Shown: one piece after another, positions 27,802-62,655 of the stretch
Numbering within the stretch: the first letter of the stretch is position 1
How the letters are laid out: each line of letters opens with the position of its first letter
Source: a virus
Taxonomy: Duplodnaviria > Heunggongvirae > Uroviricota > Caudoviricetes
Length of the DNA: 64,000 bases
IMG/VR virus record: IMGVR_UViG_3300045988_145635
Reading direction: 5' to 3' (one strand)
Notes under the pieces: generated by a model
Database searches by the model: none
What the model was told of the DNA's origin: nothing
The model's input: the letters and a program-made list of their open reading frames with translations, nothing else
Translations under genes and position numbers: made by a program

Positions 27802-29361
27802 CTAATCTCGTTTCAGAATTCCAAAATCGAATGCGCCATCAATAGGCAATACACCTTCCGCAAAGCCAGGTGTGGTGTCGATGATGTGTTTTCGCTCATA
27901 AGAGTGAGACAACAGGTATTTGTTGCTAGTGTCAATGAAATCAGTGATAAAACACACGTTTGCCTGATTCTTCTTGGCTCGTAAGCCACGACCGACACGC
28001 TGTCTCATTTCAACTTCTGCTTTCCCACCACCAGCAAGAATGACCGCACCAACGCTTGGCACATCAACACCAACATCCAGAATAGTCGAGCCTATTAAAA
28101 CATCTATTTCACCAGACGCTAAACTGTTCAGCTTTGCTTGCCTTGTCGACTGGTTCGATTCCCCATAAATGAAGTCAACTCTAAGGCCGGACTCTTTCAT
28201 CATTTCCATCAGGATTTGCCCGTGGCGTTTAAGACGAACCAGAGTCATACAATTGAGAGAATGTTGCTTATAGAGCAATGCTTCGCGAACAATGGCCTCA
28301 TTACGTCCCAAATTATACACGATCCCCAACTGATAAGCCTTTTGGTAGGCAGTGCTCATACCTACTCTAAAATTGAGGTGTTTGTTGGCAAGTTCTGCCT
28401 TGATTCTGGCCTCGTCCGGCTTGTAGGCAACTTTATGATAAAGGAAGTATGGTTTTGCCAGAATGCCTCGATCAATCAGGTACTTTTCTGTGACTTTAAT
28501 TTCAATTCGCCCGGCCACAGCCATCAGACGCATGTTGGCTTCTGTAGAATCCTTCATGAACGGCGTGGCCGTAAGCGCCAGACGATAGTCTGCGTTCACA
28601 CATAATCTGGCAATGTCATAGAAATTAGAGCCTGAAGACTCATGCGCTTCTTCCAGAATAAGCAGAGACACACTTGAAAGGAAGCGTTTCACTAGCTCCC
28701 GACGTTTGAGGTGGTAGCTCTTTTTATCTGGTGTTGCATCGCGTGGTGGTTCTTCAAGGAAACTTGCCAGAGTTTGAACTGTAGCGACGTTGATATGTCG
28801 TGATACCTGGAACTCACCCGAGCCAATGACTCCAACCTTTTGGCCCTTTAACCACGGTTCGCCATTTTCGGCGCGGTAGTCGATGGATCTCTGGAAGTTT
28901 TCGGCCATTTGAAACATCAGAACAGAGCGGGTTGTTAAAAATAATGTCATTCGACCGATACGTGCAGCTGCTTTGCAGGCAACATTAGATTTCCCGCCAC
29001 CAGTAGCGATCTGCGCAATCATCATTCCCTCTCGAACCAGTGTTTCCACAGTCTGATCCTGATACGCATAATCAGGATTGTATGGGAATGGGTTAACCGC
29101 CGGATTTGGTTTTCCAAGCGCCGGGGCTTTGTCTTTGCGGATATGAACACATTTGATGCCCGCCTTGTTCAAGTTCGCCGCTACAGGCTTGGCAAAGCCA
29201 GCAGGGAACGAGTTTTTACTCCAGTTGAACATCGTGCTTGTGCCCTTCCAGTCGCCAGTCTCGACTTCGTAGCTCAACATCTGTTGCACCAGTTGCTTTA
29301 CCTTGTCATCTGCGCCAGAAATAAGCGCATTAACTGCGTTAGATACAATCCGAACAGTCAT
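27802..29361 (-). CDS. Superfamily-2 helicase (DEAD/DEAH-box-like)
   Basis: Motif I ATGGGKS, motif II LILEEAH, motif III LTATP, arginine-finger-like QRVGRGLR. Confidence 0.7.
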   Translation of the reverse strand: MTVRIVSNAVNALISGADDKVKQLVQQMLSYEVETGDWKGTSTMFNWSKNSFPAGFAKPVAANLNKAGIKCVHIRKDKAPALGKPNPAVNPFPYNPDYAYQDQTVETLVREGMMIAQIATGGGKSNVACKAAARIGRMTLFLTTRSVLMFQMAENFQRSIDYRAENGEPWLKGQKVGVIGSGEFQVSRHINVATVQTLASFLEEPPRDATPDKKSYHLKRRELVKRFLSSVSLLILEEAHESSGSNFYDIARLCVNADYRLALTATPFMKDSTEANMRLMAVAGRIEIKVTEKYLIDRGILAKPYFLYHKVAYKPDEARIKAELANKHLNFRVGMSTAYQKAYQLGIVYNLGRNEAIVREALLYKQHSLNCMTLVRLKRHGQILMEMMKESGLRVDFIYGESNQSTRQAKLNSLASGEIDVLIGSTILDVGVDVPSVGAVILAGGGKAEVEMRQRVGRGLRAKKNQANVCFITDFIDTSNKYLLSHSYERKHIIDTTPGFAEGVLPIDGAFDFGILKRD

Positions 29362-29443: not shown

Positions 29444-30124
29444 ATGGATGTAAAAATCACGATTTTGCAGGTTGATGTTGCCAACCTTCGCCCGAATACC
29501 TGGAACACCAATTCGGTTGGTGCGCAGAATTTTGAAAAACTGAAAGGTTCTATCGAAAAATTGGGCTTTTTTAAGCCAATTTTGGCTCGTGAACTTGAAG
29601 ATGGATTTTTTGAAATCCTCGGCGGCGAACATCGCTGGCGTGCCGCTATTGAGCAAGGAATTTCAACGGTTCCAGTGCTTTCTGTGGGCAAAATTAGCGA
29701 TGTCGTAGCTAAACAGATGTCACTGGTGGACAACGAGCGATACGGTGAAGACGACCAAATCGCATTGCAACGCTTCATTGAAGAAATTCAGTCAGAACTT
29801 GACTATCAACTGTCTGAAATCGCCCCGTATGACGACGAAATCTCGATGGTTTTAGCAAAAGAGGCGGCAATCGACCTTGAAGCACTGGAGGCGTTGTCTC
29901 GTGGTAGTGATGGGCCTGTCGATACCGACAAACGAGAGAAAACCGAACGTGTGGGGGCGGAACATCAGACCATGCGCTTCAAAGTAACTTTCGATGCGTC
30001 AGATCGTGTTGCAGAAACCATAAAAAACATCATCAAAGAGCAGGCTATTAACACCGGTAATGAAATGGAGAACGCTGGTGAGGCTCTGGTGTGGCTGGTC
30101 GACTACTACAAGGAGCGTATGTAA
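29444..30124 (+). CDS. ParB/Srx-fold (ParB-like nuclease domain) protein 1
   Basis: LRPNTWN and ILGGEHRWRAAIEQG match ParB N-domain boxes; motif B site upstream. Confidence 0.6.
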   Translation: MDVKITILQVDVANLRPNTWNTNSVGAQNFEKLKGSIEKLGFFKPILARELEDGFFEILGGEHRWRAAIEQGISTVPVLSVGKISDVVAKQMSLVDNERYGEDDQIALQRFIEEIQSELDYQLSEIAPYDDEISMVLAKEAAIDLEALEALSRGSDGPVDTDKREKTERVGAEHQTMRFKVTFDASDRVAETIKNIIKEQAINTGNEMENAGEALVWLVDYYKERM

Positions 30125-30792
30125 TGACCAAAAAGTTTGAAATCGTATATCGCGACCCGGCAGATCTTATTCCCTATGAGATGAATGCCAAAAAGCATGA
30201 TGAACAGCAGATCCGAGATCTGGCCGCAGCCATTAAAAAGCGCGGATTTGACCAGCCAATTACGGTCGATAAGAACGACGTAATTATTACTGGCCACGGC
30301 CGCCGTGAGGCTGCAATTTTTGCTGGACTTGAGCGCGTGCCGGTTATTGTTCGCGATGATCTGAGTGATGACGAGGTACGTGCAAAGCGCCTTGAAGATA
30401 ACCGACTTGCCAGCATTGATTACGATGCAATTAAGCTACAGAAAGAGCTTGAGTCGCTTGTTCTGGACGATATCGAGGTTTTCGGCTTCGAAGAGCGTGA
30501 GTTGAATGTTCTCGTTGGCAGTATGACAGAAGAAATGGACACCGACTCGCTAGTTATCGATCTTGGCGAAGAAACTAAACGACAGAAGGATGAACACACC
30601 GAGATCAGTCGTGAAGTTGCAGCGGAAGAAGTACGTGTTGTCGACGTATTGGGCTTTAAAACGCTCCCTGCTGGCTCTGCCATTGTTGTTGGTGATTTGC
30701 TTGCCCATATGGAAGAAATGACGGGAGAAAGCGGGGTAGACGCATTTGTGGCATATGCGGAGAAGATCTCTTCCGGGGAGATGGCTGCATGA
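30124..30792 (+). CDS. ParB/Srx-fold protein 2
   Basis: IITGHGRREAAIFAGLERVPVIV; TAATG coupling to the upstream gene. Confidence 0.6.
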   Translation: MTKKFEIVYRDPADLIPYEMNAKKHDEQQIRDLAAAIKKRGFDQPITVDKNDVIITGHGRREAAIFAGLERVPVIVRDDLSDDEVRAKRLEDNRLASIDYDAIKLQKELESLVLDDIEVFGFEERELNVLVGSMTEEMDTDSLVIDLGEETKRQKDEHTEISREVAAEEVRVVDVLGFKTLPAGSAIVVGDLLAHMEEMTGESGVDAFVAYAEKISSGEMAA

Positions 30793-31454
30793 GCAAATAC
30801 ATCATCAACGTATCGTTTCAGACACGCGTAAATAAAACCACGCGCACGTTGGAAATCGCTGAGTCGTTCGGGCTTGGCCTGGACGAAAAAGAGTGGACGC
30901 TTTACGACAATCTGGAGCTGGAAGTGAAGCAGGGCGATGTGGTGTACATCACCGGCCAATCCGGTTCCGGCAAATCCGTTGTGCTGCGCGAGTTGCAACG
31001 ACAGATGAAGGATGAAGGGCTGTCTGTAGCCTCCATCGATGATTTTACCTTCGATAATGAGGTTAACGTCATCGATCAGTTGGGCAAAACGACCAGCGAT
31101 GCGCTTGGGTTGTTATCTATGGCTGGTCTGAACGATGCATATCTGTTTGTTCGCAAGCCTTCTGAAATGTCAGACGGCCAGAAATATCGTCTCAAGATTG
31201 CCAAACTGATTGAGTCAGGCGCTAAAGTGTGGGCTGCTGACGAGTTCGGCGCTGTTCTCGACCGTGTAACCGCTCAGGTTGTGGCGTCTAACCTCCAGCG
31301 TGCCGCTCGAAAGGTTGGTGCGACGGTAATGGTGGCGACGACTCACGAAGACCTGAAGAACGCGCTGCGCCCGGATATGCAGATCACCAAGCACTACAAA
31401 GAACGCGTGAAGGTGGAATATCACAATGGTAGTCATGATGAGGTTCATTTATGA
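30789..31454 (+). CDS. Minimal ABC-type ATPase
   Basis: Walker A GQSGSGKS, signature-like MSDGQKYRLKIAKL, Walker B VWAADEFGAVLD, H-loop-like ATTHE; ATGA coupling. Confidence 0.6.
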   Translation: MSKYIINVSFQTRVNKTTRTLEIAESFGLGLDEKEWTLYDNLELEVKQGDVVYITGQSGSGKSVVLRELQRQMKDEGLSVASIDDFTFDNEVNVIDQLGKTTSDALGLLSMAGLNDAYLFVRKPSEMSDGQKYRLKIAKLIESGAKVWAADEFGAVLDRVTAQVVASNLQRAARKVGATVMVATTHEDLKNALRPDMQITKHYKERVKVEYHNGSHDEVHL

Positions 31455-32341
31455 CGGACATCATCATTAAACGCTACCGCCCTGAAGAGTTTCCGCGTCA
31501 TCTGGATTTTCTGGAGCGAATGACTGTCACAAAGGGAACTGTAGAGGACTGGCACGCTCTTAAGTCGCTTCACTACAAAACAGACGGCAAACCTTTCGCG
31601 CCAACTTACTATCGCTGCGAACTTGATGACCGTCTGGTGGGCGTCGTGGTTATGGCTTACCCGAAACTACTGTTGGCACCTCGCCACCGCATGTTTCCTA
31701 AGTTGAAACCAACCACTAATACCACCGTGGCTAACCAGTACTGGGGTCGGTACGTGAATAACAACTTTGCGGTGATCAGTCGCTCAGTTGTGGATACTCA
31801 GTATCGTGGCGTAGGCGTCTCTTATCGAATGATTAACCTGGTTAGCAGGATGCATGACCGGCCAATCATTGAGATCCAGTCCTCGATGAGCAAATACAAT
31901 CCCTTCGCCATGAAAGCAGGGTTTAAGTTCATCCGCCCTGAGCGACCGAAGAGCTATGAAAGTGCACTGCGTGTATTCCAGCGCCATTTCCGTTCCGACC
32001 CGGGTGATAACGAGGCGATCGTCAAAGAGTTGTTCGCAATGAGCGAGTCTCGTCGTCGCCGTGCACTGCGTGATCTGGTGGCGGACTACCACAAGAACAG
32101 TTCCCTGGCAAAAGCTGGGCGGAATCGTGGCACGACGATTCAGGACATTGCCGACAGTCTGGTGGACGAGGCCAGCATTGTGAAGCTGCTCAAGGACATT
32201 CACAACCTGAGCTTTACGTCTCCGTTGTATGGTGTGTACCGAAACCCTGACTTTGGTCGTCGACTGCCTGACACGCTGCCACTGCTGGCATTCGACAAAC
32301 AACCTTTGGATAAACCGTTAGAAATTGCTTTACCGGCATAA
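31451..32341 (+). CDS. GNAT-fold acetyltransferase-like protein with C-terminal extension
   Basis: VGVVVMAYP ... TQYRGVGVS ... NPFAMKAGFK resembles the GNAT acetyl-CoA-binding core; ATGA coupling. Confidence 0.45.
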   Translation: MTDIIIKRYRPEEFPRHLDFLERMTVTKGTVEDWHALKSLHYKTDGKPFAPTYYRCELDDRLVGVVVMAYPKLLLAPRHRMFPKLKPTTNTTVANQYWGRYVNNNFAVISRSVVDTQYRGVGVSYRMINLVSRMHDRPIIEIQSSMSKYNPFAMKAGFKFIRPERPKSYESALRVFQRHFRSDPGDNEAIVKELFAMSESRRRRALRDLVADYHKNSSLAKAGRNRGTTIQDIADSLVDEASIVKLLKDIHNLSFTSPLYGVYRNPDFGRRLPDTLPLLAFDKQPLDKPLEIALPA

Positions 32342-32350
32342 GGATTTGCC

Positions 32351-32617
32351 ATGACGTTAACCGATAAACAAAAGGACATCATCAAAACGCTCAATCTCGG
32401 TTATGAGCGAGGTCATTTACTTGATCTGGACGAATTGCTTGAAGTTTTGCCGTACAAGACAACCAAGCAAAGTATCCAGTTCTCAATTCGCGCTCTGATA
32501 AAAAAGGGGCTGGTGGAGAAAGGGCATACGCGCCAACGCAGTGACAATCGCTATCACCGCCGGACTCTTGGGTTAACCACTTTAGGTCGAGCCAAAGCGA
32601 AGTTACTGGTGATGTAA
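32351..32617 (+). CDS. Small winged-helix-like DNA-binding protein
   Basis: 88 aa, basic C-terminus; last gene before the large palindrome. Confidence 0.4.
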   Translation: MTLTDKQKDIIKTLNLGYERGHLLDLDELLEVLPYKTTKQSIQFSIRALIKKGLVEKGHTRQRSDNRYHRRTLGLTTLGRAKAKLLVM

Positions 32618-32621
32618 TCGG

Positions 32622-32719
32622 TCTGGGAGCTTATTTAAAGACCTGCTTCTGTATATATAAATAATAAGTAACTTATTAAATATATACGGAAGCAGGCTTA
32701 GTAAGACATGCCCAGACCT
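32622..32719. repeat. Long palindrome, copy B (core 32642-32696) with outer inverted repeat GGTCTGGG / CCCAGACC
   Basis: cctgcttctgtatatataaataataagtaacttattaaatatatacggaagcagg; lies just upstream of the terminase genes. Confidence 0.65.
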
Positions 32720-32813
32720 AATTAAACACCCCAGAAAACAAGTTGGTTAGCATATGCAGTAAACAAGTTGTTTTAGAGCGCATGGACGCGCTCTGTGTGT
32801 TTTAGAGGGATCT

Positions 32814-33446
32814 ATGACGGTCGAAAAAGACGAGGTAAAAACTCGCCTGACACCAGCGGAGTGGGCCGAAGCTGAAGCCAAATGGACGTCAGGCGAATAT
32901 ACACTCTCAAAGCTGGAGGAAGAGTACGGCATTCGTCGTGAAACACTCTCCAGACATTTCAAAAAGCGAGGATTAGAGAAAGGCGCGGACTCTGTTGGGA
33001 AGATGGTTCGTGAGTCTCTTAAATCTGACGCAGAGCTTCGCGCTAAAGCCCGTGCGGAAAAGATAGAAGAACGTCGTACACGTTATGACGGCTGGGCGTA
33101 TGCGTTGGGGCAGATGGTGATGGTCGAAGTCACTACGGCCAAACGTGAGGGTAAGCCTTTAGGGGCGATTGAGGATTCTCTCAAGAGCTTACAGAGAGCC
33201 AGTAATACCCTTGCAAAATGCTTTGAAGTTTCGTCCAAAGCATTGGGCATGGATCATGCGGAAAATGACGAGGAAGAAATTCCGAACCTGGTATTTGGTG
33301 AGCTTACGCCTTCCCAGGTGGCGAAATTACGTCAGGAAGACGACGAGCCTGAAATCATCGATGACGAATTGCTTGAGACGTTGGAAGAAGAAGCTCTAAG
33401 CGAATTTGATGCGACAGATGATGGAAGTGAAGGGGAGGACGAATAA
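32814..33446 (+). CDS. Terminase small subunit (putative)
   Basis: HTH-like N-terminus (LSKLEEEYGIRRETLSRHFKKRG), acidic tail, directly upstream of and TAATG-coupled to the large subunit. Confidence 0.6.
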   Translation: MTVEKDEVKTRLTPAEWAEAEAKWTSGEYTLSKLEEEYGIRRETLSRHFKKRGLEKGADSVGKMVRESLKSDAELRAKARAEKIEERRTRYDGWAYALGQMVMVEVTTAKREGKPLGAIEDSLKSLQRASNTLAKCFEVSSKALGMDHAENDEEEIPNLVFGELTPSQVAKLRQEDDEPEIIDDELLETLEEEALSEFDATDDGSEGEDE

Positions 33447-34702
33447 TGGCAATCCCGTCCTCGCTCAGTCTTGTGCAACTGCATTCTGGACAGATGAAAG
33501 TCTTCCAGTCTCCGCATCGATTTAAAGTTGTTTGTGCTGGTCGACGCTGGGGAAAATCCCGGTTGTCGATCTCCACTATTATTCGTGCGGCGGCAAAGGA
33601 AAAAAAGCAAAGGGTCTGGTATGTCGCTCCTACTTACCAGATGGCTCGTCAGATTTTGTGGGACGATCTACAGGAAGTTCTGCCCCGTAAGTGGGTTAGG
33701 AAAAAGAACGACACCACGATGACAATCGTGTTGAAGAACGGTTCGGAGATCGCCCTCAAAGGTGCTGATAAACCTGACACTCTGCGCGGCGTAGCGTTGC
33801 ATTTTGTAGTGCTTGATGAATTTCAGGATATGAAGGCTGACACCTGGTACAAGGTGTTACGACCTACTCTTTCATCGACACGCGGCGGTGCACTGATCAT
33901 TGGTACGCCAAAAGGCTTCTCGGAATTTCACAAACTGTGGACTATAGGCCAGAACGTAGAGCTGCAAAGAAAGGGACAGTGGAAGAGCTGGCAGTTTGTA
34001 ACTGCTGATTCGCCGTTTGTGCCTACGGCGGAAATTGAAGCTGCTAAGAACGATATGGACCCTAAATCGTTCGCTCAGGAGTACCTGGCCAGCTTTGAAA
34101 ATATGTCCGGGCGCGTTTACTACCCGTTCGATCGAAACGTGCATGTTAAACCGCTTCAGTTCAACCCTCGGTTGCCTATATGGGTAGGACAGGACTTCAA
34201 CATTGACCCGATGTCTTCCGTAATTTTGCAACCTCAGCCAAATGGTGAGCTATGGGCAATTGATGAATTGGTGCTCTTTTCCTCTAACACGGCAGAGGTT
34301 TGTGATGAGCTTGAGAGACGCTTCTGGCGCTGGAAATCACAGATAACGGTATTTCCAGATCCGGCAGGTGCTTATCGCCAACATGCTCGCGGGGAGTCTG
34401 ACGTCGACATATTCAAAGAGAAGGGATTCTTACGTGTCGATTATTCGAAAAAGCACCCGCCAATTGCGGATCGTGTTAATGCTGTTAACCGAATGCTGAT
34501 GACCGCATCTGGAGATATCCGGCTGTATATCGATCCGAAGTGCAAGCATTTGATTGATTCATTGGAAAAAGTCATCTACAAGCCTGGAACACGAGATATG
34601 GATAAGACAGGTGGCATTGAGCATAGTGCAGACGCATTGGGCTATCCAGTACATCGTAGGTATCCAGTCAAAAACCGTGTTATTCTTGGTGGCTCTCGAT
34701 AG
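33446..34702 (+). CDS. Terminase large subunit
   Basis: Walker A VVCAGRRWGKS, Walker B HFVVLDEF, C-terminal nuclease-like region; position before the portal. Confidence 0.75.
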   Translation: MAIPSSLSLVQLHSGQMKVFQSPHRFKVVCAGRRWGKSRLSISTIIRAAAKEKKQRVWYVAPTYQMARQILWDDLQEVLPRKWVRKKNDTTMTIVLKNGSEIALKGADKPDTLRGVALHFVVLDEFQDMKADTWYKVLRPTLSSTRGGALIIGTPKGFSEFHKLWTIGQNVELQRKGQWKSWQFVTADSPFVPTAEIEAAKNDMDPKSFAQEYLASFENMSGRVYYPFDRNVHVKPLQFNPRLPIWVGQDFNIDPMSSVILQPQPNGELWAIDELVLFSSNTAEVCDELERRFWRWKSQITVFPDPAGAYRQHARGESDVDIFKEKGFLRVDYSKKHPPIADRVNAVNRMLMTASGDIRLYIDPKCKHLIDSLEKVIYKPGTRDMDKTGGIEHSADALGYPVHRRYPVKNRVILGGSR

Positions 34703-61986: not shown

Positions 61987-62655
61987 ATGACCAAGATCTT
62001 TGTGGTTGGCGGCACAAAGGGCGGGCCTGGCAAATCCACCGTTGCCCAGCAAATTGCCGTTTGCCTTAAAGTCAAAAAGAAGAAGAAGGTTTATATCACT
62101 GATATAGATATTCAGCGCACGACAACAAGCTGGTGTGAAGACCGTCGACAGAACGAAGACCTTGAGCTGATTCCTTTTGCATACGTTCAGGATGACATCA
62201 TTAAGCACCTAAAATCGCTTCAGGGTAGAGCTGAGTATGTAGTGGTAGATGCTGGTGGCTTTGACTCCGAAATTCAGCGACAAGCGATGCTGATGGCCGA
62301 CGTTATCATTATCCCGCTTCGTCCTAAGCGTCGTGATTTGAAATCTCTGCGTGACATTGATCCTATTATCGACAATGTTCGTAATGTAAACGATAAAGTG
62401 AAGGTCCGCGCGGTCATGAACCAGTGCCCGGCTTTGCCATCACAAGTGTCTCGCATTCTGGCGGCTAAAGAGATTGTTGAGACGTTTGGCATCGAGTCTG
62501 CGCCAGTCAATCTATATAACCGCAACGTCTATGATGATGCGGAAGAGTCTGGTCGTTCTATCTTTGAAATGACCGGTAGCGAGCGCGACAAAAAGGCGGA
62601 AGCCGAGTTTGAAGAATTTGTAGATTATCTGTTGAGTCTGGAGGAAAAAGAATAA
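61987..62655 (+). CDS. ParA/ParF-type partition ATPase
   Basis: Deviant Walker A GGTKGGPGKST; 222 aa. Confidence 0.8.
   Translation: MTKIFVVGGTKGGPGKSTVAQQIAVCLKVKKKKKVYITDIDIQRTTTSWCEDRRQNEDLELIPFAYVQDDIIKHLKSLQGRAEYVVVDAGGFDSEIQRQAMLMADVIIIPLRPKRRDLKSLRDIDPIIDNVRNVNDKVKVRAVMNQCPALPSQVSRILAAKEIVETFGIESAPVNLYNRNVYDDAEESGRSIFEMTGSERDKKAEAEFEEFVDYLLSLEEKE

Follow-up and report, generated by a model that had tools for sequence, protein, structure and literature searches.

A Conserved ParB/Srx–ABC–GNAT Module beside the Terminase Genes of SSU5-Type Phage-Plasmids

The Five-Gene Operon and Its Neighborhood

The window analyzed here is the whole 64,000-nucleotide stretch of a tailed-virus record (Caudoviricetes; IMG/VR record IMGVR_UViG_3300045988_145635), and positions 29444-32617 of this stretch hold an operon of five genes, G1 to G5, all on the + strand. 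G1 (29444-30124, 226 amino acids, isoelectric point (pI) 4.6) and G2 (30124-30792, 222 amino acids, pI 4.5) encode paralogous ParB/Srx-fold proteins, G3 (30789-31454, 221 amino acids) encodes a soluble ATP-binding cassette (ABC) ATPase with a full set of catalytic motifs, and G4 (31451-32341, 296 amino acids, pI 9.8) encodes a GNAT-fold, acyltransferase-like protein. The last gene, G5 (32351-32617, 88 amino acids, pI 10.2), encodes a small basic protein that is probably a winged-helix DNA-binding protein. G1 and G2 are joined by TAATG, and ATGA overlaps join both G2 to G3 and G3 to G4; nine nucleotides separate the G4 stop from the G5 start, which is preceded by AAGGA. The gene boundaries and the translational coupling are thus as an earlier note on this DNA, made from the letters alone, had given them. 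Each of the five proteins matches a PHROG family over its full length, and the labels carried by public records are "ParB-like", "ABC transporter", [quoted passage not shown], and "hypothetical". Escherichia phage Cyrano shares 99.2% identity with the region, and Salmonella phage SSU5 and Yersinia pestis pMT1 share 85%; the source element is an SSU5-type phage-plasmid.

The operon is present in 772 PLSDB plasmids, nearly at full length in 719 of them, and most come from Klebsiella, Escherichia, Enterobacter, Yersinia (pMT1 of Y. pestis CO92 among them), and Salmonella. Further carriers are 12 phage records and 359 IMG/VR relatives. The earlier note had put the module forward as undescribed and as fitting no named system. 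As regards function this stands, since no paper assigning a function to the module was found in the literature searched and the PADLOC and NCBIfam matches were generic only. As regards the gene set it does not: exactly these genes are standard beside the terminase of the SSU5 group, as the carriers just listed show, the sequence of the module is already in the databases many times, and its ABC plus GNAT core belongs to a family that is catalogued and uncharacterized.

A scan of IMG/VR with an alignment of G4 returned close relatives only, and synteny was sampled in five distant loci carrying G4 homologues (L004, L005, L088, L089, and L090; G4 identity 42–48%), which include an Ectothiorhodospira genome and an integrated prophage on a 3.27-Mb contig. 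The gene order is the same in all five: a superfamily 2 (SF2) helicase on the − strand, ParB, ParB, ABC, GNAT-like, a small winged helix-turn-helix-like gene, a gap of 200–480 nucleotides, TerS-like, TerL, and portal. The sole intruders between the module genes are small extra open reading frames (ORFs). The operon is therefore no variable cargo but a vertically conserved core module of SSU5-type phages. The neighborhood-conservation search that the earlier note had proposed has in this way returned one and the same helicase–module–terminase order, and the note was right to place the operon between the helicase and the palindrome that precedes the terminase genes.

In the window, the helicase gene (27802-29361, − strand) is divergent from G1 and encodes a UvsW-like SF2 protein (Pfam DEAD, ResIII, and Helicase_C; "UvsW helicase" in the Cyrano record). 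Its position and orientation are kept in all five distant loci, and this conserved neighbor could have a functional tie to the module. The conserved partners on the downstream side are the TerS-like gene (32814-33446, + strand; phrog_867, 2e-100) and the TerL gene (33446-34702, + strand; Terminase_6N, 3e-9; phrog_2, 4e-60).

Small ORFs wedged between module genes occur in relatives (L002 7977-8231, which is SSU5_128; L004 9705-9995; L005 8961-9999; L090 7676-8011; L089 7091-7333; L088 6527-6706) and are absent from the window. They are variable, encode 59-126 amino acids, in some cases with Phage_gp49_66 and in one with a RyR domain, and seem to be mobile or moron insertions where genes join. 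Two long antisense ORFs on the − strand of the window, at 30420-30998 (192 amino acids, inside G2/G3) and 31784-32302 (172 amino acids, inside G4), are most likely spurious because the conserved genes are those on the + strand.

The ABC–GNAT Pair and Its Fused Relatives

G3 matches ABC_tran (PF00005) with 50.1 bits against a cut-off of 25 and carries a Walker A motif (GQSGSGKS), a signature (MSDGQ), a Walker B motif with the catalytic Glu (AADEF), and an H-loop (TTHE). The residues equivalent to these motifs are invariant in 40 fused relatives, described below, and the catalytic motifs are invariant across these 40 fused and 32 split sequences. The ABC domain of a modeled fused relative is nearest to transporter-type nucleotide-binding domains (NBDs) and their soluble kin (PhnK/L, MCR component A2, ABCE1, and ABC-F). 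No membrane protein or permease is encoded in the operon or its conserved neighborhood, and in relatives the ATPase is fused to a GNAT domain; the database label of an ABC transporter was rejected on these grounds.

G4 has a GNAT fold with a core net charge of +13 and a helical insert of ~90 residues between alpha4 and beta6, ahead of the last two strands. Its acyl-coenzyme A (CoA) pyrophosphate-binding motif is R119-G-V-G122-V-S, in which R119 and G122 are invariant, and the corresponding stretch of the fused family reads RGIGLG. G4 itself falls under the Pfam threshold for GNAT domains (Acetyltransf_10, 14.4 bits vs 23.6), and some of the fused relatives pass PF00583. Among the best structural matches of G4 are TmcA and NAT10 (Foldseek: 2zpa, E 1e-4; 9j3c), Mu Mom, and likewise the N-terminal and protein acetyltransferases Naa10, RimI, and HP0935.

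A profile of G4 homologues run against 1.84 billion representatives gave 916 relatives, many of which are 450–500 amino acids long, with the part resembling G4 at the C-terminus and ABC_tran at the N-terminus. Over 212 residues, G3 shares 45% identity with the N-terminal half of one of these fused proteins (P0328, E 2e-63); hhalign pairs the G4 family with the C-terminal half at a probability of 99.9%, and phrog_11143 matches G3 and G4 alike. On the strength of these alignments, we assign G3 and G4 to a large family of fused ABC-ATPase–GNAT proteins, as its split form; the two ORFs overlap by ATGA and do not make up one polypeptide, which identifies them as a fission variant. The earlier note had thought the coupling of an ABC ATPase to a GNAT unusual, a view that does not survive a count of more than 2099 fused proteins at E<=1e-10. 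Their named sources are metagenome-assembled genomes of Nitrososphaerota, Bathyarchaeia or Thermoproteota, or Firmicutes. The JGI label of the family is "ABC-type ATPase with predicted acetyltransferase domain", the Cyrano record uses the name "MK0520 protein" for it, and we take the family to be COG2401. The AlphaFold2 model of one fused member is confident over the whole chain (pLDDT 91, pTM 0.85), which indicates a fixed arrangement of the ABC and GNAT parts. Some fused homologues carry extra parts (P0165, P0178, P0204, and P0154): an intein (LAGLIDADG/Hint) inside the ABC domain, N-terminal fusions to a family-B DNA polymerase (PolB), or a C-terminal TFIIB repeat.

The genomic setting of the fused gene was read from IMG/VR, which was scanned with two alignments; ORFs were called and our own hidden Markov models were applied, yielding 152 loci with 128 unique genes, probably in archaeal proviruses. 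In 79 of the 152 loci, the immediately upstream gene on the same strand is TerL, a protein of ~480 amino acids identified by Terminase_6N (1.5e-14) and phrog_2 (6e-38). The junction between TerL and the fused gene lies between −96 and +10 nucleotides in 36 of the 56 loci scored with our own TerL model, and a helix-turn-helix (HTH) protein, probably TerS, stands ahead of TerL in 37 loci. The fused gene is the last one ahead of a contig end far more often than chance would give: a downstream end lies within 1.5 kb for 67 of the 128 unique genes, compared with 2 of the 128 for an upstream end, and some 20 contigs stop exactly at the stop codon of the fused gene; this looks like trimming of proviruses at gene boundaries and is not proof of a physical genome end. 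Small unannotated families also recur just upstream of the fused gene in these loci (L094-L242), one of ~135 amino acids (88 loci) and one of ~85 amino acids (68 loci).

Other settings differ. In two Firmicute prophages, the fused gene is accompanied by Amidoligase_2 and GGACT and lies 1–3 kb upstream of TerL; Panacea toxin-antitoxin genes are also found near the fused gene in Firmicute prophages. In thaumarchaeal proviruses the fused gene follows the tail genes at the provirus edge, beside an SNase gene, and a phage contig of 84 kb has it between DnaB/DHH and the DNA polymerase III alpha gene. Across all settings, at least four distinct gene arrangements tie the ABC–GNAT enzyme to terminase or replication genes. 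The fused form resembles the G3/G4 pair in the colinear motifs over both halves and in this viral or proviral setting near terminase or replication genes. It differs in being a single gene, whereas G3 and G4 are two translationally coupled genes with small ORFs sometimes between them in relatives, and the coupling to two ParB/Srx proteins and a winged helix-turn-helix protein is limited to the SSU5-type lineage. In the Desulfofarcimen and Heliorestis prophages (L091 10001-13328; L244 9001-12338), the fused gene is followed by Amidoligase_2 and GGACT directly upstream of TerL and is preceded by genes for an HTH_Tnp_1_2 protein and a tyrosine recombinase.

The ParB/Srx Pair, G5, and the Adjacent Palindrome

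The ParB_N domain (PF02195; Pfam cut-off 26.3) is found in G1 with 49.9 bits (3.3e-13) and in G2 with 35.2 bits (1.3e-8). G1 further matches phrog_723 (1e-78) and the Spo0J structure 1vz0 (E 2.7e-9), and G2 matches phrog_930 (1e-112), phrog_498 "DNA methyltransferase" (1.7e-31), and the PADLOC model MTase_II (2.9e-17). Box II reads LGGEHRWRAA in G1 and appears as the variant TGHGRREAA in G2; G61 and N97 never vary across the two families, and R64 hardly does (GxxR of box II and the downstream (D/E)N motif, here DN). The alignment of G1 with G2 spans their whole length, which makes them paralogues, and both consist of a ParB/Srx N-domain of the nucleotide-binding type, an acidic linker, and a common C-terminal domain of ~55 residues. 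Their C-terminal halves are acidic, with net charges of −13 and −20, and each protein as a whole is acidic, in contrast to the basic G4 and G5. Profile matching of the C-terminal halves found no HTH or other recognizable DNA-binding domain; the common C-terminal domain reads by eye as beta-alpha-alpha, yet profile searches against PDB and Pfam did not support a ribbon-helix-helix fold. With the partition model TIGR00180, G1 and G2 score 43.2 and 43.1 bits, under the cut-off of 58.45. Outside its own family, the nearest kin of the G2 ParB domain are the N-terminal domains of phage ParB-methyltransferase fusions.

These features match those of ParB proteins that were recently reported to activate DNA-modifying enzymes in phages. 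To act on double-stranded DNA, one subclass of post-replicative thymine dioxygenases needs a phage ParB homologue that has an NBD and a C-terminal domain (CTD) but no DNA-binding domain (PMC13229309). In the same study, the top domains co-occurring with DNA-modification clusters were ParB (27%) and terminase (19%), and helicases and polymerases were found as well. According to a survey of the ParB-CTPase fold, fusions to methyltransferases are frequent in phages, and a GTP-binding fusion of ParB to an acetyltransferase exists in bacteria (bioRxiv 10.1101/2025.10.10.680097).

G5 matches phrog_900 (1.9e-45). Its matches to domains of assigned fold are below threshold and convergent, namely LexA_DNA_bind (best 2.9e-4, in 4 of 12 homologues), PadR, MarR_2, HxlR, and HTH_27, with Sta1/Lrs14 in addition, and MarR-type PDB chains align weakly with G5 over the recognition helix and wing (E 0.16). 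G5 is on these matches probably a winged-helix DNA-binding protein, and the folds that the earlier note had proposed are upheld for all five proteins, with that same reserve for G5.

Directly behind G5 lies an imperfect palindrome of 99 nucleotides (32620-32718) with an AT-rich center at about 32669/32670. The predicted hairpin has an energy of −24.7 kcal/mol, which corresponds to z = −7.2 relative to shuffled sequence. Large AT-centered palindromes of unrelated sequence occupy the same place in four of the five distant loci (L004 11181-11322; L005 11175-11289; L088 9134-9268; L090 9193-9317). The linear GenBank records of SSU5 and Cyrano begin and end 62 nucleotides past G5, which is 10 nucleotides to the right of the palindrome center, and for this reason the palindrome is probably a cos or terminase cleavage site. 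If it is indeed cos, the virion chromosome would have the operon at its right end.

Possible Functions of the Module

The folds, the intact ATPase and CoA motifs, the fission–fusion relationship, the synteny, and the linkage to TerL and polymerase genes are observed, and the evidence now points to a DNA-directed enzyme that is linked to packaging or replication. From these observations we infer a complex, DNA as its substrate, a time of action, and a protective role. The explanation that we favor, tentatively and at somewhat less than an even chance, is that the module is a ParB-assisted, ATP-gated acyltransferase whose target is phage DNA or a DNA-bound protein and which works around the time of replication and packaging. 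The catalytic center would be a two-subunit ATP-gated acyltransferase made up of the G3 ATPase and the G4 GNAT, in which ATP-driven dimerization of G3 would position or open the basic GNAT domains of G4. G4 would move an acyl group from acyl-CoA to the phage DNA, or to a protein bound there, after replication and before or during packaging. G1 and G2 may form a heterodimer through their common C-terminal domain and would serve as nucleotide-binding activators that grant the enzyme access to double-stranded DNA. G5 could act in site recognition or autoregulation, possibly at the adjacent putative cos palindrome. The benefit to the phage would be an incoming genome that is shielded from host nucleases.

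A nucleic-acid target is suggested by the strongly basic core of G4 alongside the acidic G1 and G2 and by the structural matches to TmcA, NAT10, and Mom, and a DNA-modification reading draws on the kinship of the G2 ParB domain with those fused to phage DNA methyltransferases. Each known system that invites comparison is similar in part. TmcA and NAT10, which are ATP-dependent RNA cytidine N4-acetyltransferases, also couple an NTPase to a GNAT, and theirs acts on a nucleic-acid base; however, their ATPase module is of the helicase type, as opposed to the ABC NBD found here, and the TM-scores are low (0.31-0.36). Mu Mom, a GNAT-fold enzyme that acyl-modifies DNA adenine, has no sequence homology to G4, operates without ATPase or ParB partners, and is structurally no more like G4 than generic GNATs are. 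In the ParB-dependent 5mYOX systems (PMC13229309), as at this locus, a ParB of NBD and CTD without an obvious DNA-binding domain stands beside an enzyme, and the clusters are often near terminase, helicase, and polymerase genes. Those systems consist of an Fe/2-oxoglutarate dioxygenase and one ParB, whereas the present module has a GNAT, an ABC ATPase, and two ParB paralogues, and its modification is only proposed.

Several points weigh against the acyltransferase reading. None of our results identifies the acyl acceptor, and the GNAT matches are generic in that ordinary protein and small-molecule acetyltransferases score equal to Mom and the TM-score of TmcA is as low as 0.31. The ABC domain is not nearest to Rad50, SMC, or MutS, the DNA-clamping types. 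The ParB pair was not found at the loci of the fused family with the narrow models used, and ParB assistance would accordingly be specific to the SSU5-type lineage. SSU5-type elements have no reported DNA modification even though hundreds have been sequenced as plasmids, an absence that may reflect expression of the module in the lytic phase only. As to the timing of expression, a sigma-70 promoter scan upstream of G1 was uninformative (2 sites vs 4 expected). Finally, cases of gene adjacency inside a single ancient head-module lineage are not entirely independent of one another.

A rival reading is a packaging accessory that leaves the DNA unmodified, in which G5 and G1/G2 would bind the cos palindrome, and terminase or host architectural proteins such as IHF or HU would be regulated by ATP-dependent lysine or N-terminal acetylation, controlling cos cleavage or packaging initiation. 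TerL abuts the fused gene, often overlapping it, in just over half of the IMG/VR loci, the SSU5-like module lies beside the putative cos, TerS, and TerL, and the conserved palindrome is directly 3′ of G5. Naa10, RimI, and HP0935 are among the best structural matches of G4, and soluble transporter-type NBDs, among them the matched PhnK/L, MCR component A2, and ABCE1, usually remodel partner protein complexes. Such an accessory is nonetheless rather unlikely in our estimate, as a separate TerS-like protein is already encoded and the family is also found among replication genes, fused to PolB, and at the tail-gene end of thaumarchaeal proviruses. If it were true, the module would be a new terminase accessory.

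We are similarly doubtful of an anti-defense or host-takeover enzyme that acts on a host protein or small molecule, with the ParB/Srx proteins as NTPases or nucleases. AcrVA5, a GNAT that acetylates Cas12a, offers a precedent, and G4 likewise has a GNAT fold with an intact CoA motif. ParB/Srx proteins are common in phage conflict systems according to published surveys, the Amidoligase_2, GGACT, and Panacea toxin-antitoxin genes lie beside the fused gene in Firmicute prophages, and, if the palindrome is cos, the operon would be at an end of the virion DNA and could enter the cell among the first DNA. The syntenic core, however, extends across Enterobacteria, Ectothiorhodospira, Firmicutes, and archaea, although counter-defense genes usually turn over fast; the module has no PADLOC or anti-defense annotation, and the linkage to TerL and DNA polymerase would be left without an explanation.

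Plasmid partition and cargo defense are disfavored. A prophage defense or superinfection-exclusion system, in which the ABC ATPase would be the sensor and the ParB nuclease and GNAT the effectors, recalls the many defense systems that are headed by ABC ATPases, and G3 has weak PADLOC matches to mad3, mad8, and PtuA. Among the PADLOC 2.0 defense-system models, however, the component set as a whole was unmatched; the matches were generic (MTase_II for the ParB domains; mad3, mad8, and PtuA for the P-loop), and there was none for G4. The NBD of G3 is transporter-type, without OLD or SMC features, and the content and position of the module are fixed across 42-99% identity, unlike defense hotspots. 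The status of a core module, as opposed to variable cargo, argues against a prophage defense island, an option that the earlier note had kept open, and we consider it very improbable.

Least credible of all is a role in partition or maintenance of the plasmid-prophage, with the two ParB proteins served by an unconventional ABC-type motor. The element is a low-copy phage-plasmid, the ParB_N domains are present, with the GxxR and (D/E)N motifs of ParABS proteins, and the palindromic site adjoining the operon is a candidate parS. Unlike in ParABS, however, the neighboring ATPase is of the ABC type and no ParA is adjacent: a separate ParA-like ATPase gene, 91% identical to SSU5_033, lies about 30 kb away at 61987-62655, with a 96-amino acid ORF next to it in SSU5, and this is probably the real plasmid partition locus. 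G1 and G2 stay under the cut-off of the ParB model, with no recognizable HTH, the module is intact in the integrated prophage on the 3.27-Mb contig, and the ABC–GNAT core occurs without ParB in integrated proviruses. We rejected partition on the separate ParA, the sub-cut-off ParB scores, and the presence of the module in integrated prophages.

To return to the ParB-assisted acyltransferase, its boldest form would make G3/G4 with G1/G2 the first ATP-dependent GNAT that acylates bases of double-stranded phage DNA (N4-acetyl-dC or N6-acyl-dA, for example) shortly ahead of packaging, and the TerL-adjacent fused genes of archaeal and bacterial viruses the mark of a widespread, unrecognized class of DNA acyl-modification; we regard this form as rather unlikely. 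Were DNA modification true, an acyl-CoA-dependent, ATP-gated chemistry would join the phage DNA modifications, and the idea of ParB-fold activators for DNA-modifying enzymes would be widened. Hundreds of phage-plasmids of clinical relevance have the module, among them Y. pestis pMT1 and elements from Klebsiella, E. coli, and Salmonella, and thousands of viral sequences, archaeal and bacterial, have its enzyme core beside terminase genes. Whether modification or packaging regulation applies, a concrete testable function is now available for a COG2401-type "known unknown" family and for the many orphan phage ParB proteins near terminase.

Base replacement by 5-hydroxymethyldeoxyuridine in SSU5 is unsupported, as its enlarged ThyA-family gene beside a dihydrofolate reductase gene fits an ordinary thymidylate synthase. 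Between the palindrome and the TerS-like gene, a 17-nucleotide repeat occurs in two copies on the + strand, CAGAAAACAAGTTGGTT at 32732-32748 and CAGTAAACAAGTTGTTT at 32757-32773, which also pair as an inverted repeat, and it is followed by a GC hairpin with a T-run (32774-32795, + strand) 19 nucleotides ahead of the TerS-like start. The arrangement of repeat and hairpin (32732-32795) is kept in SSU5 and may be a TerS-binding or terminator element.

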